IMG/VR virus record: IMGVR_UViG_2681813318_000003
DNA: 64,000 bases
From: a virus
Taxonomy: Duplodnaviria > Heunggongvirae > Uroviricota > Caudoviricetes
Strand: one strand, 5' to 3'
Numbering within the stretch: position 1 is the stretch's first letter; every line of letters begins with the position of its first letter. The position numbers and the translations under genes are program-made. Positions 12,590 through 59,278 of this stretch are shown piece after piece. The notes under the pieces were generated by a model that did not search any database, had not been told where the DNA came from, and was given only the letters and a program-made list of their open reading frames with translations.

Positions 12590-13236
12590 ACCAGAGCCTC
12601 ACCAGCGTTCTCCATTTCATTACCGGTGTTAATAGCCTGCTCTTTGATGATGTTTTTTATGGTTTCTGCAACACGATCTGACGCATCGAAAGTTACTTTG
12701 AAGCGCATGGTCTGATGTTCCGCCCCCACACGTTCGGTTTTCTCTCGTTTGTCGGTATCGACAGGCTCATCACTACCACGAGACAACGCCTCCAGTGCTT
12801 CAAGGTCGATTGCCGCCTCTTTTGCTAAAACCATCGAGATTTCGTCGTCATACGGGGCGATTTCAGACAGTTGATAGTCAAGTTCTGACTGAATTTCTTC
12901 AATGAAGCGTTGCAATGCGATTTGGTCGTCTTCACCGTATCGCTCGTTGTCCACCAGTGACATCTGTTTAGCTACGACATCGCTAATTTTGCCCACAGAA
13001 AGCACTGGAACCGTTGAAATTCCTTGCTCAATAGCGGCACGCCAGCGATGTTCGCCGCCGAGGATTTCAAAAAATCCATCTTCAAGTTCACGAGCCAAAA
13101 TTGGCTTAAAAAAGCCCAATTTTTCGATAGAACCTTTCAGTTTTTCAAAATTCTGCGCACCAACCGAATTGGTGTTCCAGGTATTCGGGCGAAGGTTGGC
13201 AACATCAACCTGCAAAATCGTGATTTTTACATCCAT
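12556..13236 (-). CDS. ParB-like nuclease domain protein (second copy)
   Basis: ParB motif ILGGEHRWRAA; start trimmed to ATG 13236 (MDVKITI); paralogous architecture to the adjacent gene. Confidence 0.55.
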   Translation of the reverse strand: MDVKITILQVDVANLRPNTWNTNSVGAQNFEKLKGSIEKLGFFKPILARELEDGFFEILGGEHRWRAAIEQGISTVPVLSVGKISDVVAKQMSLVDNERYGEDDQIALQRFIEEIQSELDYQLSEIAPYDDEISMVLAKEAAIDLEALEALSRGSDEPVDTDKREKTERVGAEHQTMRFKVTFDASDRVAETIKNIIKEQAINTGNEMENAGEALVWLVDYYKERM

Positions 13237-13318
13237 TTTATTGCTACAATCCACTAAGTAATCACTTACTTATTATAATAGCCAAATAACATACAAAAGG
13301 CACTAAGGAAAGAGGTTT

Positions 13319-14878
13319 ATGACTGTTCGGATTGTATCTAACGCAGTTAATGCGCTTATTTCTGGCGCAGATGACAAGGTAAAGCAACTGGTGCAACAGA
13401 TGTTGAGCTACGAAGTCGAGACTGGCGACTGGAAGGGCACAAGCACAATGTTCAACTGGAGTAAAAACTCGTTCCCTGCAGGCTTTGCCAAGCCTGTAGC
13501 GGCGAACTTGAACAAGGCGGGCATCAAATGTGTTCATATCCGCAAAGACAAAGCCCCGGCGCTTGGAAAACCAAATCCGGCGGTTAACCCATTCCCATAC
13601 AATCCTGATTATGCGTATCAGGATCAGACTGTGGAAACACTGGTTCGAGAGGGAATGATGATTGCGCAGATCGCTACTGGTGGCGGGAAATCTAATGTTG
13701 CCTGCAAAGCAGCTGCACGTATCGCTCGAATGACATTATTTTTAACAACCCGCTCTGTTCTGATGTTTCAAATGGCCGAAAACTTCCAGAGATCCATCGA
13801 CTACCGCGCCAAAAATGGCGAACCGTGGTTAAAAGACCAAAAGGTTGGAGTCATTGGCTCGGGTGAGTTCCAGGTATCACGACATATCAACGTCGCTACA
13901 GTTCAAACTCTTGCAAGTTTCCTCGAAGAACCACCACGCGATGCAACACCAGATAAGAAAAGCTACCACCTCAAACGTCGGGAGTTGGTGAAACGCTTCC
14001 TTTCAAGTGTCTCTCTTCTTATTCTGGAAGAGGCGCATGAGTCTTCAGGCTCAAATTTCTATGACATCGCCAGATTATGTGTGAACGCAGACTATCGTCT
14101 GGCGCTTACAGCCACGCCGTTCATGAAGGATTCGACGGAAGCCAACATGCGCCTGATGGCGGTGGCCGGGCGAATTGAAATTAAAGTCACAGAAAAGTAC
14201 CTGATTGATCGAGGCATTCTGGCAAAGCCGTACTTCCTTTATCATAAAGTTGCCTACAAGCCAGACGAGGCCAGAATCAAGGCCGAACTTGCCAACAAAC
14301 ATCTCAATTTTAGAGTTGGTATGAGCACCGCCTACCAAAAGGCTTATCAGTTGGGGATCGTGTATAATTTGGGACGTAACGAGGCCATAGTGCGCGAGGC
14401 ATTGCTTTATAAGCAACATTCACTCAACTGCATGACTCTGGTTCGTCTTAAACGCCACGGGCAAATCCTGATGGAGATGATGAAGGAGTCAGGTCTTAGA
14501 GTTGATTTCATCTATGGGGAATCTAACCAGACGACAAGGCAAGCAAAGCTGAACAGTTTAGCGTCTGGTGAAATAGATGTTTTAATAGGCTCGACTATTC
14601 TGGATGTTGGTGTTGATGTGCCAAGCGTTGGTGCGGTCATTCTTGCTGGTGGTGGGAAAGCAGAAGTTGAAATGAGACAGCGTGTCGGTCGTGGCTTACG
14701 AGCCAAAAAAAATCAGGCAAACGTGTGTTTTATCACTGATTTCATTGACATTAGCAACAAATACCTGTTGTCTCACTCTTATGAGCGAAAACACATCATC
14801 GACACCACACCTGGCTTTGCAGAAGGTGTATTGCCTATTGATGGAGCATTCGATTTTGGAGTTCTGAAACGAGATTAG
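13319..14878 (+). CDS. Superfamily 2 DNA helicase (DEAH-like, UvsW or type III res-like)
   Basis: Motif I ATGGGKS, motif II LEEAHE, motif III TATP, motif VI QRVGRGLR; SD AAGGAAAGAGG before ATG. Confidence 0.7.
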   Translation: MTVRIVSNAVNALISGADDKVKQLVQQMLSYEVETGDWKGTSTMFNWSKNSFPAGFAKPVAANLNKAGIKCVHIRKDKAPALGKPNPAVNPFPYNPDYAYQDQTVETLVREGMMIAQIATGGGKSNVACKAAARIARMTLFLTTRSVLMFQMAENFQRSIDYRAKNGEPWLKDQKVGVIGSGEFQVSRHINVATVQTLASFLEEPPRDATPDKKSYHLKRRELVKRFLSSVSLLILEEAHESSGSNFYDIARLCVNADYRLALTATPFMKDSTEANMRLMAVAGRIEIKVTEKYLIDRGILAKPYFLYHKVAYKPDEARIKAELANKHLNFRVGMSTAYQKAYQLGIVYNLGRNEAIVREALLYKQHSLNCMTLVRLKRHGQILMEMMKESGLRVDFIYGESNQTTRQAKLNSLASGEIDVLIGSTILDVGVDVPSVGAVILAGGGKAEVEMRQRVGRGLRAKKNQANVCFITDFIDISNKYLLSHSYERKHIIDTTPGFAEGVLPIDGAFDFGVLKRD

Positions 14879-24155: not shown

Positions 24156-26189
24156 TTACTTAACCTGGTGGCCAGGTTTAGCACCAGCATCCGGGCTTAA
24201 CAGGAAGATATCTTTCCCGCCGGGGCCAGCAGCCATCACCATGCCTTCAGAGATACCGAAGCGCATTTTACGCGGAGCCAGGTTAGCCACCATAATTGTG
24301 TGACGACCAATCAGTGCCTGTGGGTCTGGATAAGCAGAACGGATGCCTGAGAAGACATTACGCTTTTCACCACCGAGATCCAGCGTCAGGCGCAGCAGCT
24401 TGTCAGAACCTTCAACAAACTCTGCGTTTTCAATCAGCGCCACGCGCAGGTCAACTTTAGCGAAGTCGTCAAAGGTGATGGTTTCCTGAATCGGGTCGTC
24501 TGCCAGTGGGCCAGTTACCGGTGCGGCTGTGGCTTTCACTTCTTCTTTGGATGCTTCCACCAGTGCTTCCACCTGTTTCATATCGATACGGTTATACAAT
24601 GCCTTGAACGGATTCACTTTATGGCCCAGCAGCGGTTGCTGGATACCATCCCAGGTCAGTTCTGTATTCAGGAATGCTTCTGCACGTTCAGTCAGTTTCG
24701 GCAGTACCGGTTTCAAGTACGTCATCAGCACGCGGAACAGGTTAATGCCCATAGAGCAAATCGCCTGCAGATCGGCATCGCGTCCTTCCTGCTTCGCCAC
24801 CACCCACGGAGCCTGTTCATCAACATAGCGGTTAGCCAGGTCAGCCAGTGCCATGATTTCACGGATAGCTTTACCAAATTCGCGGCTTTCCCATGCTTCG
24901 CCAATCACTTCAGCGGCATCAGTAAAGGTTTTGTACAGTTGCGGGTCAGCCAGTTCGCTTGCCAGCACGCCGTCAAAACGCTTGTTGATAAAGCCTGCAT
25001 TACGGGAGGCCAGGTTAACCACTTTGTTCACGATATCGGCATTCACGCGCTGAACGAAATCCTCCAGGTTGAGATCGATATCATCAATGCGCGAAGAGAG
25101 TTTCGCAGTGTAGTAGTAACGCAGGCTGTCGGCGTCAAAATGATTCAGCCAGGTGCTGGCTTTAATAAAGGTGCCGCGAGACTTGGACATCTTCGCGCCG
25201 TTCACCGTCACATAGCCGTGAACAAACAGGTTGGTCGGCTTGCGGAAGTTGCTGCCTTCCAGCATGGCAGGCCAGAACAGGCTGTGGAAGTAAACAATAT
25301 CTTTACCGATGAAGTGGTACAGCTCGGCGGTGGAGTCTTTCTTCCAGTATTCATCGAAGCTGGTGGTATCGCCGCGCTTGTCGCACAGATTCTTGAAGGA
25401 ACCCATGTAGCCAATCGGCGCGTCCAGCCAGACGTAGAAATATTTGCCCGGCGCGTTCGGAATTTCAAAACCGAAGTAAGGCGCATCGCGGGAGATATCC
25501 CACTGTTGCAGGCCGGATTCAAACCATTCCTGCATTTTGTTCGCCACCTGCTCCTGCAACGCGCCGCTGCGGGTCCATGCCTGCAACATTTCGCTGAAAG
25601 AAGGCAGATCAAAGAAGAAGTGTTCGGAATCACGCATTACCGGGGTAGCGCCAGAAACCACCGATTTCGGCTCGATCAATTCAGTCGGGCTATATGTTGC
25701 GCCGCAGACTTCACAGTTATCGCCGTATTGATCTGGCGCTTTACATTTCGGGCAGGTGCCTTTTACAAAACGATCCGGCAGGAACATGCCTTTTTCCGGG
25801 TCGTACAACTGAGAGATAGTGCGGTTTTTAATAAAACCGTTCTCTTTCAGGCGAGTATAGATAAGCTCAGACAACTGACGGTTCTCTTCGCTGTGCGTCG
25901 AGTGATAGTTGTCATAGCTGATGTTAAAGCCTGCGAAATCAGTCTGATGCTCATGACTCATTTCGCCAATCATCTGCTCCGGTGTGATACCAAGCTGCTG
26001 TGCTTTCAGCATGATCGGCGTACCGTGGGCATCGTCGGCACAGATGAAATTAACCTCGTGGCCGCGCATTCGCTGGTAACGAACCCAGACATCAGCCTGG
26101 ATGTGCTCCAGCATATGGCCGAGGTGGATTGAGCCGTTAGCGTACGGCAGCGCGCACGTCACCAGAATTTTCTTCGCGACTTGGGTCAT
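24156..26189 (-). CDS. metG: Methionine--tRNA ligase (host-type)
   Basis: 677-aa protein starting [31 protein letters not shown], class I HIGH motif, zinc knuckles CPKC/CEVC, KMSKS motif. Near-identical (a handful of substitutions) to Escherichia coli MetG as recalled from memory, not from a database search. The longer ORF to 26318 is an upstream read-through. Confidence 0.95.
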
Positions 26190-26346
26190 AGTAGGCATTA
26201 CTTCTTTGTAGTGAAAAGGGGCTTGATAGTAACAAAATGGCCTTATGTCTGCCATGTGATAACAGCATTTCTCATAAATGATTAAATGTCGTAGCTGGAG
26301 TACACTACAAGGCGACAATTGCGCAAATTAAAATAAAGGAGACGGG

Positions 26347-27447
26347 ATGAGCGAGTCCAAATCGCCGGATGCCCTGAGAGCAATGGTAGCCGGTACGCTG
26401 GCTAATTTTCAGCACCCAACCCTGAAACACAACCTGACTACGCTTAAAGCGTTACACCATGTTGCGTTGATGGATGACACACTGCATGTCGAACTAATCA
26501 TGCCTTTCGTGTGGAATAAGCCTTTTGAAGACCTGAAAGAGCAATGTAGTGGTGATCTGCTCCGTATCACTGGCGCAAAGGCTATTGACTGGAAGCTGTC
26601 GTACAACATTGCCACGCTTAAGCGCGTCAAAAACCAACCAGGCATTAATGGCGTTAAGAACATTATCGCCGTCAGCTCAGGCAAGGGCGGCGTGGGTAAA
26701 TCCTCCACGGCGGTAAACCTGGCACTGGCGTTGGCTGCTGAAGGTGCGAAAGTTGGTATTTTGGATGCCGATATCTATGGTCCATCAATTCCAACCATGC
26801 TGGGCGCGGAAAACCAACGTCCAACCTCACCTGACGGTACTCACATGGCACCTATCATGTCTCATGGCCTGGCAACCAACTCTATTGGTTATCTGGTCAC
26901 CGACGACAATGCAATGGTGTGGCGTGGACCGATGGCCAGCAAGGCGCTGATGCAGATGTTGCAGGAAACTCTATGGCCTGATCTGGACTATCTCGTTCTC
27001 GATATGCCGCCGGGCACTGGTGATATTCAGTTGACGCTGGCGCAGAACATTCCTGTAACTGGTGCGGTTGTGGTAACTACGCCGCAAGACATCGCGCTGA
27101 TCGATGCGAAGAAAGGCATTGTGATGTTCGAAAAAGTCGAAGTGCCGGTACTGGGTATCGTCGAAAACATGAGTGTGCATATTTGCAGTAACTGCGGTCA
27201 TCACGAGCCAATTTTTGGCACCGGTGGCGCACAGAAACTGGCCGAGAAATACAACACGCAGTTGTTAGGCCAAATGCCACTTCATATCTCTCTTCGTGAA
27301 GATCTGGATAACGGAACACCAACCGTTATTAGTCGTCCAGATAGCGAATTTACGGCTATTTATCGTGACCTCGCAGATCGCGTTGCTGCCCAAATGTATT
27401 GGCAAGGTGAAGTAATACCTGGCGAAATCGCATTCCGCGCAGTGTGA
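26347..27447 (+). CDS. apbC: Fe-S cluster carrier ATPase Mrp/ApbC (host-type)
   Basis: 366 aa, P-loop SGKGGVGKS, CxxC motif ICSNCGHHEP; divergent from metG with a 157-bp intergenic region as in the enterobacterial chromosome. Confidence 0.95.
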   Translation: MSESKSPDALRAMVAGTLANFQHPTLKHNLTTLKALHHVALMDDTLHVELIMPFVWNKPFEDLKEQCSGDLLRITGAKAIDWKLSYNIATLKRVKNQPGINGVKNIIAVSSGKGGVGKSSTAVNLALALAAEGAKVGILDADIYGPSIPTMLGAENQRPTSPDGTHMAPIMSHGLATNSIGYLVTDDNAMVWRGPMASKALMQMLQETLWPDLDYLVLDMPPGTGDIQLTLAQNIPVTGAVVVTTPQDIALIDAKKGIVMFEKVEVPVLGIVENMSVHICSNCGHHEPIFGTGGAQKLAEKYNTQLLGQMPLHISLREDLDNGTPTVISRPDSEFTAIYRDLADRVAAQMYWQGEVIPGEIAFRAV

Positions 27448-29559: not shown

Positions 29560-30256
29560 TCTGCGACTCCTGCGGAGGTTCTGGTAGCGGCATCCAATGG
29601 GTTACGTTGCTAATCAGTCCATATTCATTAGTTTGAGGATGGCCGCCGCGATCGTCTCCGTATTTAAAACTTTCCATAAAACCATAATGCTTACCCCCAT
29701 TAACGCTCACAAAGCCGTAATAAGCTGGTATAACGCCGATCTCACACGTAATCAGCAAAGGAAAACCAGTTCTCCAATTTAGCTCGCCGATTACAGGCAT
29801 TCGCTCACTACAGCTTATCCAGCTATCCTTAATGCCACTATCTTGACTCTGAAGCATGGCGGCACGACAGGCGTTCCAGCCTCTCACCTCTGCAATAGCG
29901 GCAACAGCATCGACCGCGTACATTTTAAGAGGGTTAGGCATTGGTTTTTCTTCAGGTACTACTGGAATGGGTGGGGCGGCGTAGACCTCAATAATTCCAT
30001 TATCAATAGGCCATTCTCCATCCTTGAGGTAGTCACTTGTGCCGTCAACTTGCTGTTCTGCAATGTGGAATGCACCTATTGGTTTTGCCTCAAGCGAGGC
30101 CAGTGCAATTCGTGCCAGTTCTAGATCTCGTTCAACCATCTCAAGAACAACTTTGCAGTCCGCACCTTCTTTGCTAACACGTCCTTTCAAGTTTTCCAGA
30201 TAACTAACGCTTTCGCGTGCATGGGAGATTAACTGTTCTTTGGTAAAGGTGGTCAT
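29552..30256 (-). CDS. DUF551-like phage protein (tentative)
   Basis: C-terminal GDDRGGHPQTNEYGLISNVTHWMPLPEPP resembles the conserved C-terminal motif of DUF551 proteins common in enterobacterial prophages. Confidence 0.35.
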   Translation of the reverse strand: MTTFTKEQLISHARESVSYLENLKGRVSKEGADCKVVLEMVERDLELARIALASLEAKPIGAFHIAEQQVDGTSDYLKDGEWPIDNGIIEVYAAPPIPVVPEEKPMPNPLKMYAVDAVAAIAEVRGWNACRAAMLQSQDSGIKDSWISCSERMPVIGELNWRTGFPLLITCEIGVIPAYYGFVSVNGGKHYGFMESFKYGDDRGGHPQTNEYGLISNVTHWMPLPEPPQESQSE

Positions 30257-30444
30257 TAGGCAGCTCTCTCAACAACAAGCAATTCGTCGTAGTCATAATC
30301 AGTTTCGGAGCCATCCGTACCGAACAGAGTCACTTTGTCACCGTCCATCCAGAAAGATTTAACCGCACATTGTTGACCTTTAGATGTTATGACCACATCA
30401 CCAGGTATTACGTCCTCAGCGCGAACTTCTATAGTTCTCATCAT
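30256..30444 (-). CDS. Hypothetical small protein
   Basis: ORF 30256..30570 trimmed to the internal ATG (MMRTIEV) that abuts the upstream stop. Confidence 0.3.
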
Positions 30445-30764
30445 GCTGATCCCTCTTTCTCTCCCCGGATAATTCTGTTGCACACATCCACGCACTCGTC
30501 GCAGATAAAAACGGCGTCCCCAGCAATTAACTTTTTGACGGCGTGCTGGGATTTGTTGCAGAAGCTGCAATAAAGCGTTCGCCTAACGGATACGGATGGT
30601 GCGCCAGATGTCAGCCGCGCCATATCGTTCTTGCGGCGCAACATCACACGGCTGAACTCAACCAGTTTCTCTGGGGATATCTCCTCCTCCGTAGCTAGCG
30701 TCTCTAGTCGTTCGAGTATGTGGAAGGCTTTTTCCTGGGTAATTGCAGAATGCGATGTGGTCAT
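30441..30764 (-). CDS. Small protein with ClpX-type C4 zinc-binding domain
   Basis: [36 protein letters not shown] closely parallels the ClpX N-terminal zinc-binding domain ([36 protein letters not shown]); no AAA+ module follows. Confidence 0.55.
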
Positions 30765-31106
30765 CTTCTTTCACCTTAATTTTCGACACGATCATGATTT
30801 AGCCAAAATCCACCATCCCGAAATGAGTGCATAATCTGACCAACATGAGTGAACAATCCCGTTCTCCTGTTGCTGATTCTTGTCCATTGCAAGACTCGAG
30901 GGTCGTTTCTACGAACTAATAGAATCTTTGCTTTACGGTTTTTCATCGTTTTGCTCTCCTGCGTTTCTTTGCTGCACGCCGAGCCGCCGCGATACCAGTA
31001 CGACGCTTTGATGCAGGAATACCGGTTCCATCAGAAAAGACATGCGACTTTATGAGTGATGTTGACGCCCAAAGGCGAATTGGGTGTGGAAGCAAGCCGA
31101 AGAACA

Positions 31107-31352
31107 CTATCTGCATTTCACACCACCATTTGTATTCGGTGAGCTATTTACTTCTTTCGCGTTAGCTTTGCGCTTAACTTCTCGAACGGTATAAGAAAGG
31201 TCATTAAGCATGATGACCGACGCCATAATATTGCAATGCAGTTGCTCTTCGACACGGTTAAGCATTATTCGCAAATCCGGGTGTTCCGCTTCAAATCTTG
31301 CACGCTCAATCTGCCATAAGTTGGCGGCTTCTAACGTTTTATTGGTTGCCAT
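31107..31352 (-). CDS. Hypothetical small protein
   Basis: 81-aa ORF with ATG at 31352. Confidence 0.3.
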   Translation of the reverse strand: MATNKTLEAANLWQIERARFEAEHPDLRIMLNRVEEQLHCNIMASVIMLNDLSYTVREVKRKANAKEVNSSPNTNGGVKCR

Positions 31353-31353
31353 A

Positions 31354-31803
31354 TCAAACTCCTTTGCGAAGCTCAGCGGCGAAGGCTACTGCGTGATCAT
31401 GATGTTCAAGTGTGTATGCATACTCCGCAAACATCTCCACGCCCTGCGCACGTACTTCAGCCAGAAAAGCATCGGTGGCTGGAGTCTCCGTCAATTCGCT
31501 AACCCAATTATCTCCGTGTTCCTCGGCACACATCGCATCGAATGCTCGCTCAGATTCTTTCAGGGCTGCATTCTCCGCCGCTAATGCGTCTCTTTGCGCC
31601 CGCAACTTCTCAATTTCGGCAGCCATGTAGTAACCAACCATAGCGAAGACGGCAAAAGAGTTGTCTGCCTCATCAGGCGACACTGAGGCCATTAGCAGGC
31701 CATCGTAAAAATCGTGACTCCCATTGGTGATCGCCACCGCATAGGAGTCGTGGTTCTCGCGCTTGTGAATGAGAACTACGGGATTTTCGATTTTGTTACT
31801 CAT
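31354..31803 (-). CDS. Hypothetical protein
   Basis: 149-aa ORF; conserved start context AGAGAAAAACACATG; inverted class A motif about 70 nt upstream. Confidence 0.4.
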   Translation of the reverse strand: MSNKIENPVVLIHKRENHDSYAVAITNGSHDFYDGLLMASVSPDEADNSFAVFAMVGYYMAAEIEKLRAQRDALAAENAALKESERAFDAMCAEEHGDNWVSELTETPATDAFLAEVRAQGVEMFAEYAYTLEHHDHAVAFAAELRKGV

Positions 31804-31941
31804 GTGTTTTTCTCTTCTTTGCTGTTACATAAGCACTACCAAGTGCTGGTTTATTTTCACAAATAAGAAAATGTAGAAAACAATTTATTTAAGGCCATAA
31901 GTTATGGCCTTTATTTATTCATGCAGAAGGATTTGTAGCGC

Positions 31942-33087: not shown

Positions 33088-34773
33088 TCATTTAACGCAT
33101 TTGAAAACGTATACGCTGACTGTGATCCCTGTGTCTTCAAACTCGTTGGTAAACGACTTCCCTCTGGCATAAACGTAATTATCCATCGTCATCCAGTCCA
33201 GTATTGGCGCAGTGCCCGGCAATACTGCTACAAGACGCCCGCCGACTTTCAGATGCCCCAGCGCAGCCAGCGTGTGCTCTCTATGACGACCAAGCGAGTA
33301 CGGCGGGTTCATAACGATTTTGTCGAACTGATAACCTGCGTTGTCCTCAGACCACTTTATGAAGTCGCAGCAAATCGTGTTCGTATACCCTTTTCCACGC
33401 AGGATATCAGCGAAGAGAGGTGCGATTTCTATGCAGGTAACATCTTCCAGATCGGCGTTAATATAGGCCAGAAGATCCCCACGTCCGGCTTGAGGCTCCA
33501 ACAGCTTCTCACCAGGCTTCAATTCAGTGGCTCTGGCAACGTACTCAGCAATCAAGCGTGGGGTAGGGTAGAACTGGTGTGATTTTGTATCCGGTATTAA
33601 ACCGGTAGCCACAATCGTATTTAGCGTATGGCCGATCTCATACGGGAACTGCCAGTGCTTTTTCTCCTGCACGCCGCCAATGAAGCTCAGTGTGCGCTCA
33701 AGCTCTTCCACCTGCGACTTCTGGAGAGCTGAATCAGAGAAGTACCATACGCCTTTGTCTTTGCTCAATCGCCCGTCACGAAGCGCAGTGCGAACCGGCA
33801 TGGAGATCGTCTTCTGGATTAACCCGAACTGCTTTGGTGCCCGTGTTTTTGGCGCAGTTCGGCATGGCGCGGGAATTGCAGCAGGCATACTGTAAGCCAG
33901 CACCTCATTCAACTTCCAGGCCACGTCAGGATGTATTTCAAAGTGAACGTTGCCGTTCTTGAACATCTTCACGCGCATCAGATTTCCATCGACGTTCATC
34001 CAGTCACCGGTCTGGCAGTCGTTTGCCCGATACGCAGCTGATAGCACCTCAGCAGTGCGGTTGATGGTAATAAATTCTTTGTGCGCGAAGAAATGAAGCA
34101 AGACACGCAGATCGTCGATGTAGTCCTCTTTGCGATAGTTCACGCTAACGCTGTCCCGCCAGAAATCAGAAATGCAGTCAGCGATTATCAGACGCTCGCT
34201 GAAACCGTTTGTCTTATTTGTCTTGTGCGCAGGACTCAGCGCCTTAAACAAGCCATACACGCGCTCAGAGAGATATTTGTGCCTGTCATTCAGCAAATTA
34301 AGCATCGTGGGTATGACCGTTTCTGCTTTGAACTCCGGTACACCAACGAACTCTTTAACCTTCATCTGGTAGCCGGTTCTGTCAGTTTTGATGACTTCCT
34401 GTTTGCCCTCTATAAACTGCTCGCGCCACTCATCTCGACGGGAAGCTGGCATGATCAGCAAAACGTTAGTCATATCCGTGACCTTCCTCCAGTACTCGGC
34501 CCAAATATTCTGTTTCACCCATTCCAGATCGACTTTATCCAACCAACCTCGATTTAAACGCGAGCGATCTTCATCTGGTCGATGGTTTAGTCGCAGCAGG
34601 CGATTAATCATGTTGTGGCGTTCGTCGCCATAAACGAAGTCGTGTACCTGATACATGAAGGCGATCTCTTTCTCGCACTCGGCCACGATTTCGTGGATGA
34701 CATTCATTTCCTGACGATAGTCGATAGCCGTGTTTGAGCTGGCATCGTCGATGATGGAAAGGGCTGTATTCAT
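33088..34773 (-). CDS. DNA N6-adenine (or N4-cytosine) methyltransferase with large N-terminal domain, orphan
   Basis: C-terminal SAM-binding LLEPQAGRGDL and catalytic IVMNPPY; 561 aa; no restriction endonuclease partner nearby. Confidence 0.6.
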   Translation of the reverse strand: MNTALSIIDDASSNTAIDYRQEMNVIHEIVAECEKEIAFMYQVHDFVYGDERHNMINRLLRLNHRPDEDRSRLNRGWLDKVDLEWVKQNIWAEYWRKVTDMTNVLLIMPASRRDEWREQFIEGKQEVIKTDRTGYQMKVKEFVGVPEFKAETVIPTMLNLLNDRHKYLSERVYGLFKALSPAHKTNKTNGFSERLIIADCISDFWRDSVSVNYRKEDYIDDLRVLLHFFAHKEFITINRTAEVLSAAYRANDCQTGDWMNVDGNLMRVKMFKNGNVHFEIHPDVAWKLNEVLAYSMPAAIPAPCRTAPKTRAPKQFGLIQKTISMPVRTALRDGRLSKDKGVWYFSDSALQKSQVEELERTLSFIGGVQEKKHWQFPYEIGHTLNTIVATGLIPDTKSHQFYPTPRLIAEYVARATELKPGEKLLEPQAGRGDLLAYINADLEDVTCIEIAPLFADILRGKGYTNTICCDFIKWSEDNAGYQFDKIVMNPPYSLGRHREHTLAALGHLKVGGRLVAVLPGTAPILDWMTMDNYVYARGKSFTNEFEDTGITVSVYVFKCVK

Positions 34774-34920
34774 AATTACACCATTAAATAATTTGTTTTC
34801 TTATTGGTGTAATTATCGCAAACTTGAAAAGGCATAAAAGCTGCATTCATAGGCGTTACAGCAGATTTAAGGCGTAAAAATGGGGGCTTTCGCCCCCTGT
34901 CGACTTGTGCGGTATTAGAA

Positions 34921-35484
34921 TTATGCGTATTGCGTTTTGTGCGGTTGCTTATTCAAGTCGTGGCGATGCGTAAGCTCCCGCATCATGTCTTCAAGCCGAC
35001 TTTTCGTATCATCAAGCTGGTCGGCCATTGCTCCCAAAAGCTGGCGAACGGCCATTGGATCGTCACTGTTTAGTGATGGCATTTTATATCCCGCTTTAGA
35101 AGACATAAGATTGATTGCAGACATCAACATCGTTAGAGAAGACTTAAGTCCGGCAATTTCACGATCTTTGCTGGCAATAATCGTCTCACTATTGTTACCG
35201 TCATGGGTTCCTTGAGTCTCGCTCACCATATCCAAAGTCGCCTGCAACTTATTAGCGCGCTCTTTTTCAGCAAGATAATGAACACCGAAATGGTGTGCCA
35301 AAGCTACAACCTGAGTTGGCTCTTCAAAGGTGGAATTAAAATTAAGTACTGTAAACAGTCTCTCAAATATAGAAACGTCTTCTGTTCCCCGAACAATGCC
35401 TAACATTTTGACAAGTTCATTAGCATCCATTTCTTCGAATAGGGCGTTTTGTTCATCAGCTATTGCTTTGCATTTCTCGCACAT
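34921..35484 (-). CDS. Hypothetical protein
   Basis: 187-aa ORF with start context AAGGAAAACACATG and a class A motif upstream. Confidence 0.4.
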   Translation of the reverse strand: MCEKCKAIADEQNALFEEMDANELVKMLGIVRGTEDVSIFERLFTVLNFNSTFEEPTQVVALAHHFGVHYLAEKERANKLQATLDMVSETQGTHDGNNSETIIASKDREIAGLKSSLTMLMSAINLMSSKAGYKMPSLNSDDPMAVRQLLGAMADQLDDTKSRLEDMMRELTHRHDLNKQPHKTQYA

Positions 35485-35781
35485 GTGTTTTCCTTAATGC
35501 TTAAACAAGTTGTTTTCTAATTGGATTTATTGTGATGTGGCATAAAAGGGGAGCAAGCTAAACGTAAAGGTGCAAACTCTCTATTTCGGTCAACGAAACA
35601 CAAGGGCCATTTGGCCCTTGTCATTAACACGTTGCTTTACGGACTAGCGGATAAGCGAAGTAGATCGCCAGGCCAATGAGGACGCCATCAGAAATGACAG
35701 ACATCATCTTTCCCGTAAAATCCACCAACACCGCCATCACCAGAAGAGCAATGACGGTCACAAGCCGGAATCTCTCAAGCA

Positions 35782-36207
35782 TTAGAGATAAGCATCCAGT
35801 GACAACTGAAGCGCCTGGGCTATCTTTTTCAGCGCCTGCTCTTCTTGTTCTCCAATACCGTCTTGGTCGGCAATATCAAGGCACAGACACAGAACATCGA
35901 CCGCCTCTGGAGTACCCGCAATATCAGACAGCTCACGAATAGCCTGTGCATTAGCAGAACGAGGGGACGCTTCGTAACGAGCACGGATATTGGCGCTCAT
36001 TTGGGCAATTTCACCAGCAAACGGAGAAAACGCAGGCAGAGCTGCAATTGTCTTCTCAAGAATGGCAATTTCTTTTGCGTCACATGTGCCGTCGGCATAG
36101 GAGATCATGTACGCGCCCCACACGGTGGCCTCAACCGCATCACGGTTCTCCATTTTTTTGACTTCAATAACAGCTTTACGAGTTTTCTTTTTGAAGAAAC
36201 CTAACAT
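35782..36207 (-). CDS. TerB-like domain protein (tentative)
   Basis: YADGTCDAKEIAILEKTIAALPA segment resembles the TerB fold signature; class A motif upstream. Confidence 0.35.
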   Translation of the reverse strand: MLGFFKKKTRKAVIEVKKMENRDAVEATVWGAYMISYADGTCDAKEIAILEKTIAALPAFSPFAGEIAQMSANIRARYEASPRSANAQAIRELSDIAGTPEAVDVLCLCLDIADQDGIGEQEEQALKKIAQALQLSLDAYL

Positions 36208-36300
36208 GTGTTTTCCTTTTATTATTTGTCAGAACAAGTTGTTTTCTAGTTTCATAAATTGCTTGCGCAAAGATGGTCAATGCATATGCACTAACAACCG

Positions 36301-36489
36301 TCAGAAATAACCAAGTACCGAACCAACTGGAAAAACAAAAATCCCAACTACACGAGCCAAGGTCATGCCAGCCTGAAACTGGAGATCACCAGAGCAAACA
36401 AGTTTTATAATGTTCGATACCCAACCGGCGGCCATGAGGGCCAGAATTGCCAGCCAAATTTTTCCAAAGTGATTTGAAAACCAGTTCAT
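36301..36489 (-). CDS. Small two-TM membrane protein
   Basis: 62 aa with hydrophobic stretches IWLAILALMAAGWV and VVGIFVFPVGSVLGYF. Confidence 0.4.
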   Translation of the reverse strand: MNWFSNHFGKIWLAILALMAAGWVSNIIKLVCSGDLQFQAGMTLARVVGIFVFPVGSVLGYF

Positions 36490-36737
36490 ACAACCGCCTT
36501 AGTCACAACATGATCCTGAGTAACTGGATGAACTTGAGGTATCGCATCCACCGTCATCCCATCCAGAGTGACAGGACGCTCTACTGGAGTGGTGGTAATT
36601 GTCGTCGACGGAGGTGTGGTGATGGATGAATCCGGCATCAAAAGGCTCTGGCCGGCTGGAACAGCTACCGTCGCCAGTGAAACTATAATGAGAACGTAGG
36701 CCATTGGTTTCAGCCTCTTTCTTTGAAAATTTTCCAT
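36486..36737 (-). CDS. Small signal-anchored Pro/Thr-rich protein
   Basis: 83 aa, TM segment MAYVLIIVSLATVAVPAG, SD AAGGA before ATG 36737; lies in a different frame inside the longer ORF 36499..36993. Confidence 0.4.
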   Translation of the reverse strand: MENFQRKRLKPMAYVLIIVSLATVAVPAGQSLLMPDSSITTPPSTTITTTPVERPVTLDGMTVDAIPQVHPVTQDHVVTKAVV

Positions 36738-36993
36738 TCGAACTGTCCTTGTTGTTTTTCTCCTTCACTAAAGGCCGTGCATTTTTCGCTTGGTGTGAAG
36801 AACCAGAGGTAACAATCGCCCCCACGTTCGCAACAACTGACGCTTGCTTATCTAAACGTTCATTCAGCAACCGAACGGTAGTCTCCAGTTCATCAAGACG
36901 TGACAGAACACGACCGCTAAATAATTCGGCCAAAATTTGACGTAGTGAACGAGGACGTTTAGTTGCAGAAGTGAAATAGGTTTGACGTGCCAT
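36499..36993 (-). CDS. Hypothetical protein (extent uncertain; overlaps the 83-aa gene out of frame)
   Basis: 164-aa ORF with SD GGAG before ATG 36993; C-terminal half is low complexity, so either the real gene ends early or this is an embedded-gene arrangement. Confidence 0.25.
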   Translation of the reverse strand: MARQTYFTSATKRPRSLRQILAELFSGRVLSRLDELETTVRLLNERLDKQASVVANVGAIVTSGSSHQAKNARPLVKEKNNKDSSNGKFSKKEAETNGLRSHYSFTGDGSCSSRPEPFDAGFIHHHTSVDDNYHHSSRASCHSGWDDGGCDTSSSSSYSGSCCD

Positions 36994-37138
36994 GTGGACT
37001 CCATCCAGTGTCAGAAAGAGTTGCGGCTGGCGATTGCCAGCCGCCTTTCTCGTTCCATCCTGGAACTGTGTCTTACCGACACATTGTCATCCTGACGCCG
37101 ATAAGATACATGATTTAATATGATAGGTAAACACTTAC

Positions 37139-37732
37139 TTACCACTTGTTGTAAATAAAACCAATGTCTTTCTTGTGAGGCGTATCGGCTGCGGAAAAAG
37201 CTGCGATCTTCGCGAGTCGATCACATATTTCATTTTCACGATGCCCGGCGTGACCTTTAACCCACTTCCAGCGAACATTATGTCGACTTGCGGCCTCATC
37301 CAGACGTTTCCACAGATCAACATTCTTTACCGGTTTTTTATCAGAAGTCATCCATCCATTACGTTTCCACCATTTCATCCACTGTGTCATGCCGTTTTTC
37401 AGATACTGGCTATCAGAGTACAAAATAACGTTGCATGGATATTTCAAACGCTCCAGCCCGATAAGTGCGCCCATCATCTCCATGCGGTTATTGGTGGTGC
37501 TATGAAAACCATCTGAGAACTCGCGTTCCTCACCACGATACTGGAGAACGATACCGTAACCGCCCGGGCCACCCGGATTTTTAAGGCAAGAGCCATCACT
37601 AAAGATTTTCACGGTTTTGAGCTGGGGATTGAACTCTACGACAGGCGTTGTGGGATTGGTGCGGGGAGAATTTTTGTTTTTGTCTTTTTTGCGAGTTTTT
37701 GCTTGCGATCGGGCTGGTGTCTTCGTCGTCAT
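37139..37732 (-). CDS. Ribonuclease HI with basic N-terminal extension
   Basis: [58 protein letters not shown] align to E. coli RnhA catalytic motifs; start at ATG 37732 with SD CAGGAG. Confidence 0.85.
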
Positions 37733-38316
37733 ATAAACTCCTGAATCAATCGCCGCGCCGATTTTTTTTCCTCGCGCGTGCGCACACGCGTGCGTGTTAA
37801 TAATTATTAAAATAAACAAATTACTTCCCAGAACAGGTTTTTATAAACCTGAACTGAACGAACGAAGTGAGTGAAGTTCACCTCGAACGAAGTGAGAGGT
37901 TGTCTTTTCAGGTAATACTCTCCCAGGGAGGTGAGTATAAAATTCCTCACCAACCTGGTCGTTTCATAACCTGAAAAGCTATGGTCTAAGTCTACTGCCA
38001 GCTTAGACTTGGGAAGTTATGGATGACAGCACCCCAGAACCGAGATCTTCCCACACTTTATGAAGGGGAGTACTGGATTCAACCTCTCGAAACACCCCAG
38101 ACTCGACAATCATAAAGTGACCCTTGTCTCTGCTCACTTTGGTTCCCCCTTCCCCGACACCTATACGGCACCGGTTCTACGCTGGTAGTGAGCTTTTTTA
38201 AACCTGACGCCAGTGACGCTTACCCCCACCCATCAGGTCGAGCCTCCAGTCTACGACTGGAAACTATCATATCTTAGCACTTACAATTCACTTTATGAAT
38301 AGTTTGTACTTATCTA
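37733..38316. other. About 580-bp non-coding region with multiple inverted repeats (candidate structured RNA or cis element)
   Basis: No ORF; alternating GC tract CGCGCGTGCGCACACGCGTGCG, GAACGAAGTGAG direct repeats, CTCCCAGGGAG and TAAGTCTA..TAGACTT palindromes. Confidence 0.3.
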
Positions 38317-38547
38317 TCATTGTGATTGATTATTTTCTCGACCATGTAGTTGAACATTCAAGGCAAACACCTCATTGATCAACTCACCTAAAAGCTGTTC
38401 AACAAGTTCGCGATGCTCGCCAAGATGCAAGCACTTAATTGCCCACTCGTACAAGTTGAAAGCCTGCTCACGATCTTTCATCATTTCACGAGCCTGGGCC
38501 AGAAAATCGCTCTCTACGAGCGCAACGACATTAGTCGGGTATGACAT
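38317..38547 (-). CDS. Hypothetical small protein
   Basis: ORF 38317..38571 trimmed to ATG 38547 (MSYPTNV) with SD AAGGA. Confidence 0.35.
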   Translation of the reverse strand: MSYPTNVVALVESDFLAQAREMMKDREQAFNLYEWAIKCLHLGEHRELVEQLLGELINEVFALNVQLHGRENNQSQ

Positions 38548-38653
38548 GTTGGTTTCCTTAAAGTGGTTCATAAAATCGATTTTAAAGCGTCTGGGAAGGG
38601 GTTCTAGTGGATTCTGTAGTGATGTTCAGGTCTGGAGTCTCTGATACAAAACA

Positions 38654-38710
38654 GCCTGCTTCCGTATATTAATAATTAATATGTAGTTATTTATATATAC
38701 AGAAGCAGGC
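38654..38710. terminator. Long AT-loop hairpin (bidirectional terminator-like), paralog of 9982-10040
   Basis: GCCTGCTTCCGTATATT..TTATATATACAGAAGCAGGC. Confidence 0.45.
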
Positions 38711-38732
38711 TAATTACAGACGCCAGAACAAA

Positions 38733-39326
38733 CTAAGCAGCCTTCTTTGATGGTCTTTTTTTCCTGATCACATTCGCAGGATCATACCCTCCCAGACTTT
38801 TCATGACGTCCAAAGGGATCTTGCTTATAGAGTGCCCAGCGTCCTGACAGAATCCTCGAAAAACAACGAGCATACTGCCACCGGGGTTGATGTTTACTTC
38901 TACCTGACCCAAATTGACGTCAGGCTCGACAAACGCTACGCGGCCACCAGACAGAATAATCGTCTCATTCGCACACTCTGTTGCACGCTCATACCACTTT
39001 GTATCGAGGGATTGAGGAATTAGCATCACTGTTGTAACTCCGCGAGCCTGCTCACGTATAGCCGCATCAATCCAGGGGGAGATTTTGGAGTAGGGTGGAT
39101 TGAGGAAGGCAATTGTACCTGGCTGTCCCCATTCAGATTTCAAAGCATCACGCTCAACGCCTATGAAAATAGGCAGCTTTGCGTTGTCCTTGTTGCAGGC
39201 AACGTCAACATCAAATGTCACTCCAAGATAACGTTGAATGGCAGAAAACAGCCAATCAGGTGTTCTCCAGAGGTCACGAAGAGAGTTGTCGCGCTTTCGC
39301 TGTTTGATTTTTTCGGCTGCAATCAT
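38733..39326 (-). CDS. Phage-type Dam-like DNA N6-adenine methyltransferase, orphan
   Basis: 197 aa with FLNPPYSK catalytic motif; size and layout of the small phage Dam family. Confidence 0.6.
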   Translation of the reverse strand: MIAAEKIKQRKRDNSLRDLWRTPDWLFSAIQRYLGVTFDVDVACNKDNAKLPIFIGVERDALKSEWGQPGTIAFLNPPYSKISPWIDAAIREQARGVTTVMLIPQSLDTKWYERATECANETIILSGGRVAFVEPDVNLGQVEVNINPGGSMLVVFRGFCQDAGHSISKIPLDVMKSLGGYDPANVIRKKRPSKKAA

Positions 39327-39336
39327 CTTCTTTCTC

Positions 39337-39357
39337 GATAGGTAAGTGATTACCTAT
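39337..39357. promoter_or_regulatory. Class B palindromic motif (representative copy)
   Basis: GATAGGTAAGTGATTACCTAT, 8-bp arms ATAGGTAA/TTACCTAT, about 12 nt upstream of the Dam ATG. Related copies near 963-982 (perfect 20-bp palindrome TAGTAAGTATATACTTACTA), 4542-4559, 7964-7983, 10003-10017, 13253-13274, 20309-20331, 33070-33089, 37121-37145, 44177-44198, 48890-48913, 53571-53593, 59511-59535, 63035-63062. Confidence 0.5.
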
Positions 39358-39509
39358 TTTTGCATTTGATTTTATGTCTGGCAATCAAATAAAACGCGCC
39401 AGAAATGCAAACGAGAAGCTCTCTGGCGCGTTTTTGTGGTGCTGGGTATGTGATTGGCTTACCCAGCACTATAAAGCTCTCTATGGGCTTTATTTTCAGT
39501 AGGGGGACG

Positions 39510-40440: not shown

Positions 40441-40482
40441 AAAGCCTGCTTCAAACTCTCTTTAAAGCAGGCTTTTGTTTTA
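40441..40482. terminator. Hairpin terminator (bidirectional)
   Basis: AAAGCCTGCTT..AAGCAGGCTTTTGTTTT. Confidence 0.5.
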
Positions 40483-41037
40483 CACAATTTCAGAGGGTAA
40501 TTTAAAAAATCCGTATTTATTACGTGCCTTAAAGAAGCATTGCATCATTAAGTTTGTGTCATATAAGGCACTATGTGCTTTGGCATGATCGTATATAAAG
40601 CCAAGAGAGAAGGCCAATTCTTCAAGGCGAGGACGTTTACCGTCTTCTGTGGCCCACAATCCCGATAACATAGTATCTATAACAGGAACTTCTGGCAGTC
40701 TTACTCCATACCCTGAAAACTCGTGTCGAATAAATGGTATATCAAACGCTTCGCCGTTATGAGCAATCCACGCACTACATGCCCCCATATAAGCGCCAAT
40801 TTCGCTGGCATGATTTGACAACAAAGGTTCAGCTGCGAGCTGTTCTAATGAAATGCCATGAACGGCTTGAGCTTTCGGATCTATGTTTCTGCGAGGGTTA
40901 AAACGCATCTCCAGACTATCAATATGTCTCTGTGTCTCCAGTTCATAGCGGGTAATTGCGATTTCAATAATTTTATGACCAGCAAGGAAATCCAGTCCCG
41001 TAGACTCGATATCGATGCCTGCAACAATCGTTGTCAT
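40480..41037 (-). CDS. DnaQ-like 3'-5' exonuclease (DEDD family)
   Basis: Exo I GIDIESTGL, Exo II HNGEAFDIPF, Exo III HSALYDT motifs; SD AAGGAG. Confidence 0.7.
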   Translation of the reverse strand: MTTIVAGIDIESTGLDFLAGHKIIEIAITRYELETQRHIDSLEMRFNPRRNIDPKAQAVHGISLEQLAAEPLLSNHASEIGAYMGACSAWIAHNGEAFDIPFIRHEFSGYGVRLPEVPVIDTMLSGLWATEDGKRPRLEELAFSLGFIYDHAKAHSALYDTNLMMQCFFKARNKYGFFKLPSEIV

Positions 41038-54918: not shown

Positions 54919-55145
54919 ATTATTCACATATCCACAGGATAGATCCTAATAAAGAGATCCATAGATAGATCCTTGTATAGATCAAATAAGATCCCCGATC
55001 GCTGTAAGCCGCGCCACGACTGGTCTGAAGCCATGTTCATGTATGCTACCAGCGGTAATTGATAGTCTGTCAACGGTTCGCCGTATGCTGCCAACTGTTT
55101 TTGGTATGCTGCCAGCGGCAAATCAAGTATGCTGTCAGCGGTTGA
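54919..55145. promoter_or_regulatory. Plasmid-type replication origin: tandem DnaA boxes, GATC-rich repeats, upstream iterons
   Basis: TTATTCACATATCCACA (two overlapping DnaA-box matches), six GATC sites within about 60 bp in AGATCC units, then four iteron copies GTATGCT(G/A)(C/T)CAGCGG at about 55041, 55083, 55104, 55127. Confidence 0.7.
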
Positions 55146-55162
55146 ATGACAAAGGTGTCCAC

Positions 55163-56257
55163 ATGTCCACAAAAAATAAAAAAGGTAAAAATAACAAAGA
55201 AGTAGAAGATAATCTCGACAACTTTGAAGAAGGTTCCCTTGAATTGTACACAGGGGAACTTGTCCCTAATAGCAACAATACAGTCCAACCAATTGCGTTG
55301 ATGCGGCTGGGGTTGTTCGTGCCCACGCTCAAGGGGACAAAATACAGCAAGCGTAACAAGCCAAATGAGATCGATGCTTCAAAGGAGCTTGTTCAGCTCG
55401 AAGTAGCCCGTTCTGAAGGTTATTCCGATATCAAGATAACCGGTCCTCGTCTCGACATGGATCATGATTTCAAAACGTGGGTGGGCGTTGTGCGTTCGCT
55501 GGCAGAATACGGCGAACCTAACGGTCGTGTCGAGTTAAGCATCACGAAATTTGCGAAGTTTTGTGGCTATCCATCGTCACAGATCCGCAAAACACTCCGC
55601 GACCGGCTTACAAACAGTCTTTTGAAGATCATGCGTACAACTCTGTCTTTTCAGAGAACGTATGAAGAAAAGAACGTCGACGGCTCTAACAAGATCTCGC
55701 TTCTGATGGTGCACCTCATCAATAGCGTGGACTACAACGAGCAGAAAGATACGGTGGTGTTCTATGCAGAACCGAAGCTGGCCGAACTATATCGCTTTGA
55801 CCATAAGGTTCTTTTGCAGTTAAAGGTTATCAATAAGCTACCACGCAAAGAAACAGCACAGGCTCTGTACACCTTCATCGAAAGTCTTCCAACCAAGCCT
55901 GCGCCGGTATCGCTTGCTCGATTACGTGCGCGACTCAATTTGAGTAGCAGGAATGTCAGCTCGCAGAATCAGACTATACGTAACGGCTTAAAAGCTCTCC
56001 AAGATTTGGGCTATCTCGAATACAGCGAGATTAAGCGAGGGCGGTCGATCTATATCCAGATTCACAGCCGCAATCCAAAACTCAAAGTCGCACCGCCAAA
56101 ACCTGAAGACATCGAACCCAAAAAACCAGATGAGAAAGCTGGGGAAATTGATGCCAAACAGAACATTATCAACAAGATAACCGAACTTTCGCAGAATTTG
56201 ACGCCTGAAAATATCAAGATGATTGAGATCCTTTCCAATAGTCTCAAACTGCTTTGA
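55163..56257 (+). CDS. repA: Iteron-binding replication initiator (RepA-like)
   Basis: 364-aa ORF flanked on both sides by same-orientation iterons; start taken at ATG 55163 (MSTKNKKGK) after SD AAGG; architecture matches P1-type incC-repA-incA replicons. Confidence 0.7.
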   Translation: MSTKNKKGKNNKEVEDNLDNFEEGSLELYTGELVPNSNNTVQPIALMRLGLFVPTLKGTKYSKRNKPNEIDASKELVQLEVARSEGYSDIKITGPRLDMDHDFKTWVGVVRSLAEYGEPNGRVELSITKFAKFCGYPSSQIRKTLRDRLTNSLLKIMRTTLSFQRTYEEKNVDGSNKISLLMVHLINSVDYNEQKDTVVFYAEPKLAELYRFDHKVLLQLKVINKLPRKETAQALYTFIESLPTKPAPVSLARLRARLNLSSRNVSSQNQTIRNGLKALQDLGYLEYSEIKRGRSIYIQIHSRNPKLKVAPPKPEDIEPKKPDEKAGEIDAKQNIINKITELSQNLTPENIKMIEILSNSLKLL

Positions 56258-58447: not shown

Positions 58448-59278
58448 TTATTTCACTGTAATGAAAGGAGTGTTAGCCCCTTGAGTCATGTACTGCGGTA
58501 ACTGGCCATTCCATTTATTGATGGCTTCCAGTTCCATAACGTTCGGGTTTTGACGCAGAGCTTCACCGCGCAGACGAATGGCGTCTGCTTCTGCTTGCGC
58601 ACGAGCACGGATAGCATCAGCTTCACCATTAGCCTGTTCACGTAGCATATTCGCCTCAGCTTTACGTTGTTCAACTTCCTGCTGACGTTGCAGAGTACGC
58701 TGGTTAGCCGTTACTTTGGCGTTAATAGATTCAATGACAGTTTTTGGGTAATCAGGCTTTCCAACCCATGACAGGCTCAGTACCTCAATACCAACCGGAG
58801 ACATCTCTTTCTGAATATCTTTCAGTGCGTTGTCCAGCAATTGTGCCTTACCACCGTCGATAAATGAGTCAGTGGTCATACGGCTGGCCAAACGGTTTAG
58901 AGAGTCGGCAATTTTCTGACGCAGATCTGATTCGGTGATATCGTCTACGCCTTTGCGATAGGTCTGGAACACCGTCGTTACCTTGTCACGATTAACCAGA
59001 TACGCAACGCCAATTTTGTGACCAATAGCAGTACCGTCACTCATCTGGAATGTGAACGGCTCGTCGTAGGTCTTCATTTGTTTGAAGGTCGGGAATACGT
59101 AAAGTTCGGTGTTAAGACCTGTCCATTGGCGACCAACGCCAACCACTTCACCAATCCCTTTGTCTTCACCTAATTTGTTTACTTTGATGCCAACGTATCC
59201 AGGCTCCACGCGATCGCAGCCAGTAAGACCCATTGTGCAAATAGCCGCCAGAGCAACTGCAAGTAAACCTTTCTTCAT
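58448..59278 (-). CDS. SPFH (band 7/prohibitin-like) domain lipoprotein
   Basis: Lipobox LTGC after a signal peptide, followed by an SPFH-like domain and an A/E/R/Q-rich coiled-coil C-terminus. Confidence 0.55.
   Translation of the reverse strand: MKKGLLAVALAAICTMGLTGCDRVEPGYVGIKVNKLGEDKGIGEVVGVGRQWTGLNTELYVFPTFKQMKTYDEPFTFQMSDGTAIGHKIGVAYLVNRDKVTTVFQTYRKGVDDITESDLRQKIADSLNRLASRMTTDSFIDGGKAQLLDNALKDIQKEMSPVGIEVLSLSWVGKPDYPKTVIESINAKVTANQRTLQRQQEVEQRKAEANMLREQANGEADAIRARAQAEADAIRLRGEALRQNPNVMELEAINKWNGQLPQYMTQGANTPFITVK

Follow-up and report, generated by a model that had tools for sequence, protein, structure and literature searches.

Why should a mobile element carry two adenine methyltransferase genes with no recognisable restriction partner for either? 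The question is raised by a 64,000-nt stretch of tailed-virus DNA (IMG/VR record IMGVR_UViG_2681813318_000003; hereafter, the window), which lies within an apparent phage-plasmid related to plasmid pECOH89 and Salmonella phage SSU5. An earlier note on this DNA, made from the sequence alone, had pointed to two orphan adenine methyltransferases at positions 33088-39326 and had proposed that they protect the element from host restriction and possibly regulate a GATC-rich replication origin at 54.9 kb. Based on the analysis described here, the two genes probably encode independent solitary S-adenosylmethionine (SAM)-dependent N6-adenine DNA methyltransferases that serve self-protective methylation, the smaller, Dam-type enzyme possibly acting at the origin as well, in the manner of P1; the probability of this reading is put at about 0.6. 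What we infer is the action of the large enzyme on DNA, the GATC target of the small one, and the two roles (protection and origin).

The smaller gene (38733-39326, minus strand) encodes a protein of 197 amino acid residues with a predicted GATC target. It was matched by Pfam PF05869 (Dam) at 129.1 bits (cut-off 28.1), with residues 13-173 on profile positions 5-160 of 169, and by TIGR01712 at 112.5 bits (cut-off 97.05); the phage Dam-family assignment of the earlier note is therefore upheld by two models above their curated cut-offs. The PADLOC "orphan methyltransferase" models matched the protein as well. The NPPY motif was found at residues 76-79 (39090-39101), and the protein showed 36% identity to the VT2-Sakai dam product and 27% to T1 Dam. 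When it was aligned with the T1 and VT2 enzymes, D18, W20, T22, P23, D41, A43 and N76-P77-P78-Y79 were invariant, corresponding to the D-x-W-x-TP, D-x-D-x-A and NPPYS elements. Like the phage Dams of T1, HP1 and VT2 (933W) and M.Phi93DAM, the 197-residue enzyme is a small, single-domain, phage-borne and solitary member of the same hidden Markov model family, with NPPY as its sole classical motif. It differs from VT2 Dam in a basic C-terminal tail of 20-25 residues (…IRKKRPSKKAA), which VT2 Dam lacks, and from the T1/HP1/VT2 type in residing on a phage-plasmid with a P1-type origin. The VT2, T1 and HP1 proteins have been described as Dam enzymes. For Phi93_04 (M.Phi93DAM), which comes from a Lactococcus phage and is a remote relative within the family (~30% identity), GATC methylation was demonstrated by SMRT (single-molecule real-time) sequencing and DpnI/DpnII digestion, and the phage DNA was shielded from DpnII (PMC4190342). 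Because GATC specificity has been kept across such distant relatives (VT2, T1, M.Phi93DAM), GATC is most likely the target of the 197-residue enzyme too. The homologue in pECOH89 is about 99% identical over 197/197 residues, and a small Dam of at least 60% identity was found in ~720 plasmids, nearly all of them non-mobilizable and of ~110 kb, which makes the gene nearly part of the core set in this lineage of phage-plasmids.

The larger gene (33088-34773, minus strand) encodes a putative orphan N6-adenine DNA methyltransferase of 561 residues, here termed MTase A, as indicated by its open reading frame (ORF) and family matches. The protein was covered from end to end by PHROG phrog_6263 ("DNA methyltransferase"; E 3e-299), is present over 561/561 residues in pECOH89, and showed 99% identity to the "DUF4942 domain-containing protein" of the WP_024269809 type. 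Residues 396-561 (33091-33588, minus strand) form a Rossmann-fold N6-adenine methyltransferase catalytic domain with motif X (QFYPTP) at residues 400-405, motif I (EPQAGRGD) at 426-433 (33475-33498) and motif IV (NPPY) at 489-492 (33298-33309), which is the linear X-I-IV order of gamma-type enzymes. Despite these motifs in the C-terminal ~165 residues, no methyltransferase domain was called on the protein by Pfam. The motifs align to M.TaqI (PDB) with NPPY in register, the catalytic domain was matched by PHROG families labelled as DNA methyltransferases, by the type II methyltransferase models of PADLOC (2e-10) and best by the MADS methylase mad2 (1e-15, residues 394-523), and the highest identities among the structural matches were to the DNA enzymes CamA (27%) and TaqI (25%). 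Because of these sequence matches and the genomic context, DNA is favoured as the substrate of MTase A.

The N-terminal module of MTase A comprises residues 1-395 (33589-34773, minus strand). The earlier note had rightly seen a large domain here and had left it as one of unknown function; it can, however, be named, since Pfam DUF4942 (PF13708) was matched with 74 bits (cut-off 25; E 1.7e-20) over residues 140-295 (33889-34356). The module consists of a variable helical head (residues 1-85; mean pairwise identity 0.27), a conserved DUF4942 core (86-300; 0.51-0.53), a basic linker (301-325), and a small alpha/beta subdomain (326-395; 0.30) that is variable and indel-rich. The conservation of the core equals that of the catalytic domain (0.53 over residues 396-500). 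No structural relative of the 395-residue module was found. Gamma-class enzymes such as M.TaqI, M.BseCI, CamA and HsdM have a C-terminal target-recognition domain, whereas MTase A ends 69 residues past NPPY, a stretch that in the model does no more than complete the Rossmann sheet with its last strands, and has the N-terminal module instead. Because the catalytic domain is without a TaqI-like C-terminal recognition domain, it is presumably through the DUF4942 module that DNA is bound and the target selected. Specificity may be determined by the variable subdomain (326-395), a candidate for this role, whereas the function of the conserved core would be one shared by the whole family. An H-x3-H…N pattern in the core (H277, H281 and N289, on a beta-hairpin and helix) was considered as an HNH motif and set aside, since both histidines are placed on the second strand and the motif had no structural support.

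Both ORFs described in the earlier note were confirmed, on the minus strand. No internal stops were found in either gene, and the lengths equal those of annotated homologues. The ratio of nonsynonymous to synonymous differences per site (pN/pS) was 0.11 for MTase A compared with SSU5_095 (pS 0.33) and 0.12 for the Dam gene compared with SSU5_088 (pS 0.76). Both genes are intact and under purifying selection, and the possibility of pseudogenes, which the earlier note had named as fatal to its proposal, was refuted. The much higher pS of the Dam gene indicates that the two genes have had different histories (mosaicism) within the same block.

The orphan status was examined in 10 neighbouring ORFs (Pfam and PADLOC), 30 further ORFs of the window (PADLOC) and the full Prokaryotic Genome Annotation Pipeline (PGAP) annotation of pECOH89. 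A restriction-endonuclease model was matched by 0/40 window ORFs and none is annotated in the 111.7-kb pECOH89, a non-detection only, as many of the ORFs are hypothetical, though no sign of a novel nuclease was seen among them; to this extent the earlier statement that no endonuclease lies nearby was corroborated. The only nuclease-type match among the 10 neighbours was a DEDDh 3'-5' exonuclease of the replication/repair type (40480-41037), and the 30 further ORFs gave only generic helicase, SMC-ATPase and ParB-domain similarities. No recognisable cognate endonuclease gene adjoins either methyltransferase gene, whereas a type II restriction-modification (R-M) system would have one there. The N-terminal PD-(D/E)xK nuclease and C-terminal recognition domain that mark type IIG/IIL (MmeI-like) enzymes were not found, and no neighbour matched any mad model, whereas a MADS methylase is placed inside a multi-gene mad operon.

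The family to which MTase A belongs was delineated with phmmer; residues 85-330, used as the sole query, recovered 612 clusters from a set of 1.84 billion representatives. Among the 149 best module homologues, 135 were proteins of at least 480 residues with the module at the same position, and a C-terminal NPP[F/Y/W] was present in 132 of these 135. Because the architecture is near-constant among the best 149 homologues, DUF4942 is the N-terminal module of one methyltransferase family and not a free-standing domain. MTase A itself, with NPPY at residue 489, shows the fixed arrangement of a module at ~80-300 of a 510-580-residue protein followed by a C-terminal NPP[FYW]. The large enzyme was found at 60% identity or more in ~599 plasmids, and the same architecture, at ~31% identity, in another 1,650 or so plasmids, of which most are large and conjugative.

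Six loci with a DUF4942 gene were then compared. On the IncHI2 plasmid pSH102, the second methyltransferase is a canonical Dam-family gene 1.8 kb off (~5.5 kb from repHI2); on a 116-kb IncHI-like contig it is a PF02086 Dam 1.5 kb off; in the early-right operon of a Variovorax prophage a PF01555 enzyme lies directly downstream; and in an Enterobacterales prophage the DUF4942 gene is flanked by PF01555 and PF00145 enzymes. On a phage contig and in a UvrD-DnaG replication module, no second methyltransferase was found beside the DUF4942 gene. Because a recognisable nuclease adjoined the DUF4942 gene in 0/6 of these loci, the family is evidently one of mobile-element orphan methyltransferases, repeatedly stacked with other orphan methyltransferases, as one would expect if they served anti-restriction. 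On IncHI2 conjugative plasmids and in lambdoid prophages, the DUF4942 proteins share the full-length architecture of MTase A (~31-38% identity over 85-99% of the length) and are likewise solitary, but differ from it in element type and in partner family, the partner being a PF02086 Dam on the IncHI2 relatives and a PF01555 or PF00145 enzyme in the prophages. Such a second solitary methyltransferase lies within 0-2 kb on unrelated elements at L009 3560-7844 (IncHI2 pSH102), L014 4655-8638, L004 8001-10936 and L006 4948-12320; the window shows a similar pairing. The family of the larger enzyme is widespread and uncharacterised; it occurs on >1,300 large conjugative plasmids (PLSDB) and in many prophages, so that one characterised member would annotate many genes. 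The residual interest of the locus lies in the specificity and fold of DUF4942 and in its recurrent pairing with Dam-type enzymes.

A P1 oriR-type plasmid origin, the likely substrate of GATC methylation, was located at 54920-55160 (plus strand) from its sequence, a comparison with P1 oriR and a scan statistic. It is followed by the gene for a RepA-type initiator of the RepB family (55163-56257, plus strand), whose product showed 43.5% identity to P1 RepA and ~50% to RepFIB RepA. Six GATC sites were found in 56 bp (54942-54997), a density that was reached in 13/5000 random placements and that makes this the single significant cluster of the window. Two DnaA-box-like sites (54920 and 54928) are followed in order by the six GATC sites in heptamer repeats, a conserved GC-rich spacer, four iterons of the form TATGCT(G/A)CCAGCGG (TATGCTGCCAGCGG; 55042-55141) and the Rep gene. 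When the region was aligned by eye with P1 oriR, ttatccacattatccactggatagatcc… of P1 corresponded to ttattcacatatccacaggatagatcc… of the window, followed in both by …gatccc(t/c)gatcg(t/c)tg(c/t)a(g/a)gccgcgccacg…, and the same heptamers are labelled "Dam site; methylation site" in the P1 record. With a RepA homologue placed after DnaA boxes, GATC heptamers and iterons in that order, the GATC-rich origin noticed earlier at 54.9 kb is a genuine homologue of P1 oriR. Phage P1, like this element, is a phage-plasmid with its own adenine methylase and an oriR built of DnaA boxes, GATC heptamers, iterons and repA, and the origin and RepA are true homologues in the two. Unlike the 197-residue Dam, the Dmt of P1 belongs to another family and is a large, fused enzyme, and P1 carries a complete type III R-M system, EcoP1I, whereas none was detected in this element. 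A GATC methylase on the same element as a P1-type oriR would be a sensible partner, as in P1.

According to the favoured reading, both enzymes would methylate the element's own DNA. The effect would be greatest when lytic or plasmid replication outpaces host methylation, and packaged DNA would enter the next host already protected from restriction. MTase A would act by gamma-type catalysis, its N-terminal DUF4942 module presumably choosing the target, and the GATC enzyme would keep the six oriR Dam sites and other GATC-dependent processes methylated independently of the host Dam capacity. Self-protection is, by analogy, the most economical reading because it fits the demonstrated action of related phage orphan methyltransferases (M.Phi93DAM). 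Several observations weigh on the other side. To our knowledge, the hosts recorded so far (Escherichia, Salmonella, Klebsiella and other genera) are all Dam+; a second GATC methylase would therefore give no obvious extra protection against enterobacterial restriction and would not obviously be needed at the origin. The SSU5 origin has diverged and has only 3 GATC sites, with a Rep variant of 47.9% identity, yet the Dam gene is kept. Across the window, 281 GATC sites were observed against 324 expected, a ratio (0.87) similar to that of other 4-bp palindromes, with neither avoidance nor enrichment. While prophages and plasmids are merely carried, their orphan methyltransferases are in many cases silent (PMC4659465), and no functional data for either protein were found in the literature on DUF4942, SSU5/pHCM2 methylomes and IncHI2 methyltransferases. 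The interpretation first proposed is thus upheld in part: the family assignments and the orphan status stand, and the origin idea gains from the homology to P1 oriR and from the GATC methylation by characterised relatives of the small enzyme but is weakened by the Dam+ hosts and by the three GATC sites of SSU5.

The same facts can be read differently for the small enzyme. Its role might be chiefly housekeeping or regulatory: as in P1, GATC methylation would license the oriR-type origin and/or time packaging or gene expression, and an enzyme of the element's own would confer independence from limiting host Dam. This account draws on the homology of the origin to P1 oriR, annotated Dam heptamers included, on the relation of RepA to P1 RepA (43.5% identity), and on P1, which also encodes its own Dam and whose oriR and pac are reportedly dependent on adenine methylation; it also accommodates the little protection that a GATC methylase adds in Dam+ hosts. 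On the other hand, P1 oriR is adequately served by host Dam in dam+ cells, and SSU5 retains Dam beside its GATC-poor origin and diverged Rep. No P1-pac-like GATC cluster was found near the terminase genes, where the maximum was 4 GATC per 200 bp (~6.4 kb), and Dam at 60% identity or more occurs in ~720 plasmids whereas ~485 have this Rep type, so that gene and origin are not bound to each other and a necessary link between the two is not favoured. A chiefly regulatory Dam is thus considered possible but doubtful.

For the 561-residue protein, the substrate is the first point of dispute. An N-methyltransferase of RNA (rRNA, tRNA or mRNA) or of protein, acting on host translation or on a process of the element, would agree with the structural comparison, in which rRNA m6A enzymes match the fold as well as DNA enzymes do. 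Its sequence matches, however, are to DNA enzymes (TaqI, the PADLOC type II and MADS methylases, the PHROG DNA methyltransferases), the top identities among the structural matches are those of CamA and TaqI, the NCBIfam matches lie far under cut-off, and, both on plasmids and in the early regions of phages, members of the family have further DNA methyltransferases as neighbours; we consider a substrate other than DNA quite unlikely. It would be very improbable that the protein is not an orphan at all, with DUF4942 as a cryptic nuclease or effector in a fused R-M or defence enzyme (type IIG-like or MADS-like). The DUF4942 core is conserved like the catalytic domain, its invariant H183, H277, H281, D221, D262, E170, R171 and R223 could form an active or metal site, and mad2 is the best PADLOC match of the catalytic domain. 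A bolder view is that the DUF4942-methyltransferases are a distinct class of mobile-element adenine methyltransferase, whose new-fold module would confer unusual targeting (for example, relaxed specificity or coupling to replication or entry) in place of classical sequence-specific recognition. Together with a GATC/Dam-type enzyme they would make up a recurrent two-methylase set against restriction, put together separately on phage-plasmids, on IncHI2 plasmids and in prophages. As a whole, this view is tentative and rather unlikely.

Other solitary adenine methyltransferases of mobile elements are known to protect incoming DNA, namely M.EcoGIX/M.BceJIII of plasmid leading regions, which are single-strand-specific, and the non-specific phage methylases of the Hia5/M.EcoGII type (PMC7736820, PMC3299994). 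The window enzymes resemble them in being solitary and borne by a mobile element. As families for either enzyme, M.EcoGIX/M.BceJIII and the Hia5 type were rejected: these are beta-class or other subfamilies with DPPY, the M.EcoGIX/M.BceJIII family being defined as beta-class with a DPPY catalytic motif (PMC7736820), whereas both window enzymes have NPPY and MTase A has the gamma order.

Along its entire length, the 6.2-kb region (33088-39326) showed 97.6-98.5% identity to non-mobilizable plasmids of ~110 kb from E. coli, E. albertii and E. fergusonii, pECOH89 among them, 96.5-97.3% to the phages Cyrano, CMS-2020a and PhiR41_1, and 83.6% to SSU5. Gene order in the window follows that of pECOH89 collinearly, starting at the capsid genes, continuing across the DNA-metabolism block and reaching the replicon, with three points of difference, namely the mosaic segments at 29.8-31.85 kb (29835-31847) and 22.7-23.7 kb and the 3-kb ISEcp1-blaCTX-M-15 insertion of pECOH89, which is absent from the window (junction ~58455; 58453-58457). 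Because of the identity of the region and this collinearity, the window is evidently part of a phage-plasmid of the SSU5 supergroup, of the pECOH89/pSLy3 type. Phage-plasmids of this type are common in clinical Enterobacterales and carry extended-spectrum beta-lactamase (ESBL) and carbapenemase genes; the supergroup itself has been described (PMC9600943). The earlier note missed both this identity and the fact that the two genes are already annotated in public records, including SSU5 ("DNA methyltransferase" twice), pECOH89 and hundreds of plasmids. Solitary methyltransferases are an expected, ordinary feature of a temperate phage, and the finding is correct but ordinary. The establishment of phage-plasmids of this type in new hosts depends on evading restriction; the targets of both enzymes, if known, would bear on host-range prediction, on the origin of methylation motifs in long-read data of plasmid-bearing isolates, and on the buffering of P1-type origins against host Dam levels.

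Both methyltransferase genes sit within a long minus-strand block of DNA-metabolism genes. The stretch between them (35624-36207) is variable: the window and pECOH89 have DUF3927 and a TerB/TciA-like "tellurite/colicin resistance" gene, in place of which SSU5 (L010 5509-6243) has an Ant anti-repressor. In phage-plasmids of the pSLy3 type, DUF3927 and tellurite-resistance genes are listed with the genes that lie close to insertions of resistance genes (PMC9600943). A GC-rich hairpin with a T-run, resembling a terminator, was found by consensus scan between the upstream 187-aa ORF and the start of MTase A (34882-34897, minus strand); MTase A may therefore be a separate transcription unit. The same kind of scan gave a sigma-70-like promoter match (TTGCCA-17-AAAAAT with TG upstream; 39356-39384, minus strand) 30 bp upstream of the start codon of the Dam gene, a weak match and only a lead, as promoter-like sites in the region were fewer than in shuffled sequence.

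Within the replaced segment 29835-31847, the pECOH89 counterpart encodes an HD-domain protein. The ORFs at 24156-26318 (720 aa) and 26347-27447 (366 aa) belong to a block that shares 96% identity with the part of pECOH89 bearing methionine--tRNA ligase (metG) and apbC, an unusual cargo for a phage-plasmid. A ParB-like pair (11888-13254) was considered as additional methyltransferases and rejected, the PADLOC "MTase_II" match being confined to the ParB-like N-terminus of the model. These tandem ParB/Srx-like proteins (11888-12589 and 12556-13254) adjoin an ABC-type ATPase (11226-11891) and a divergent DEAD-box helicase (13319-14878).

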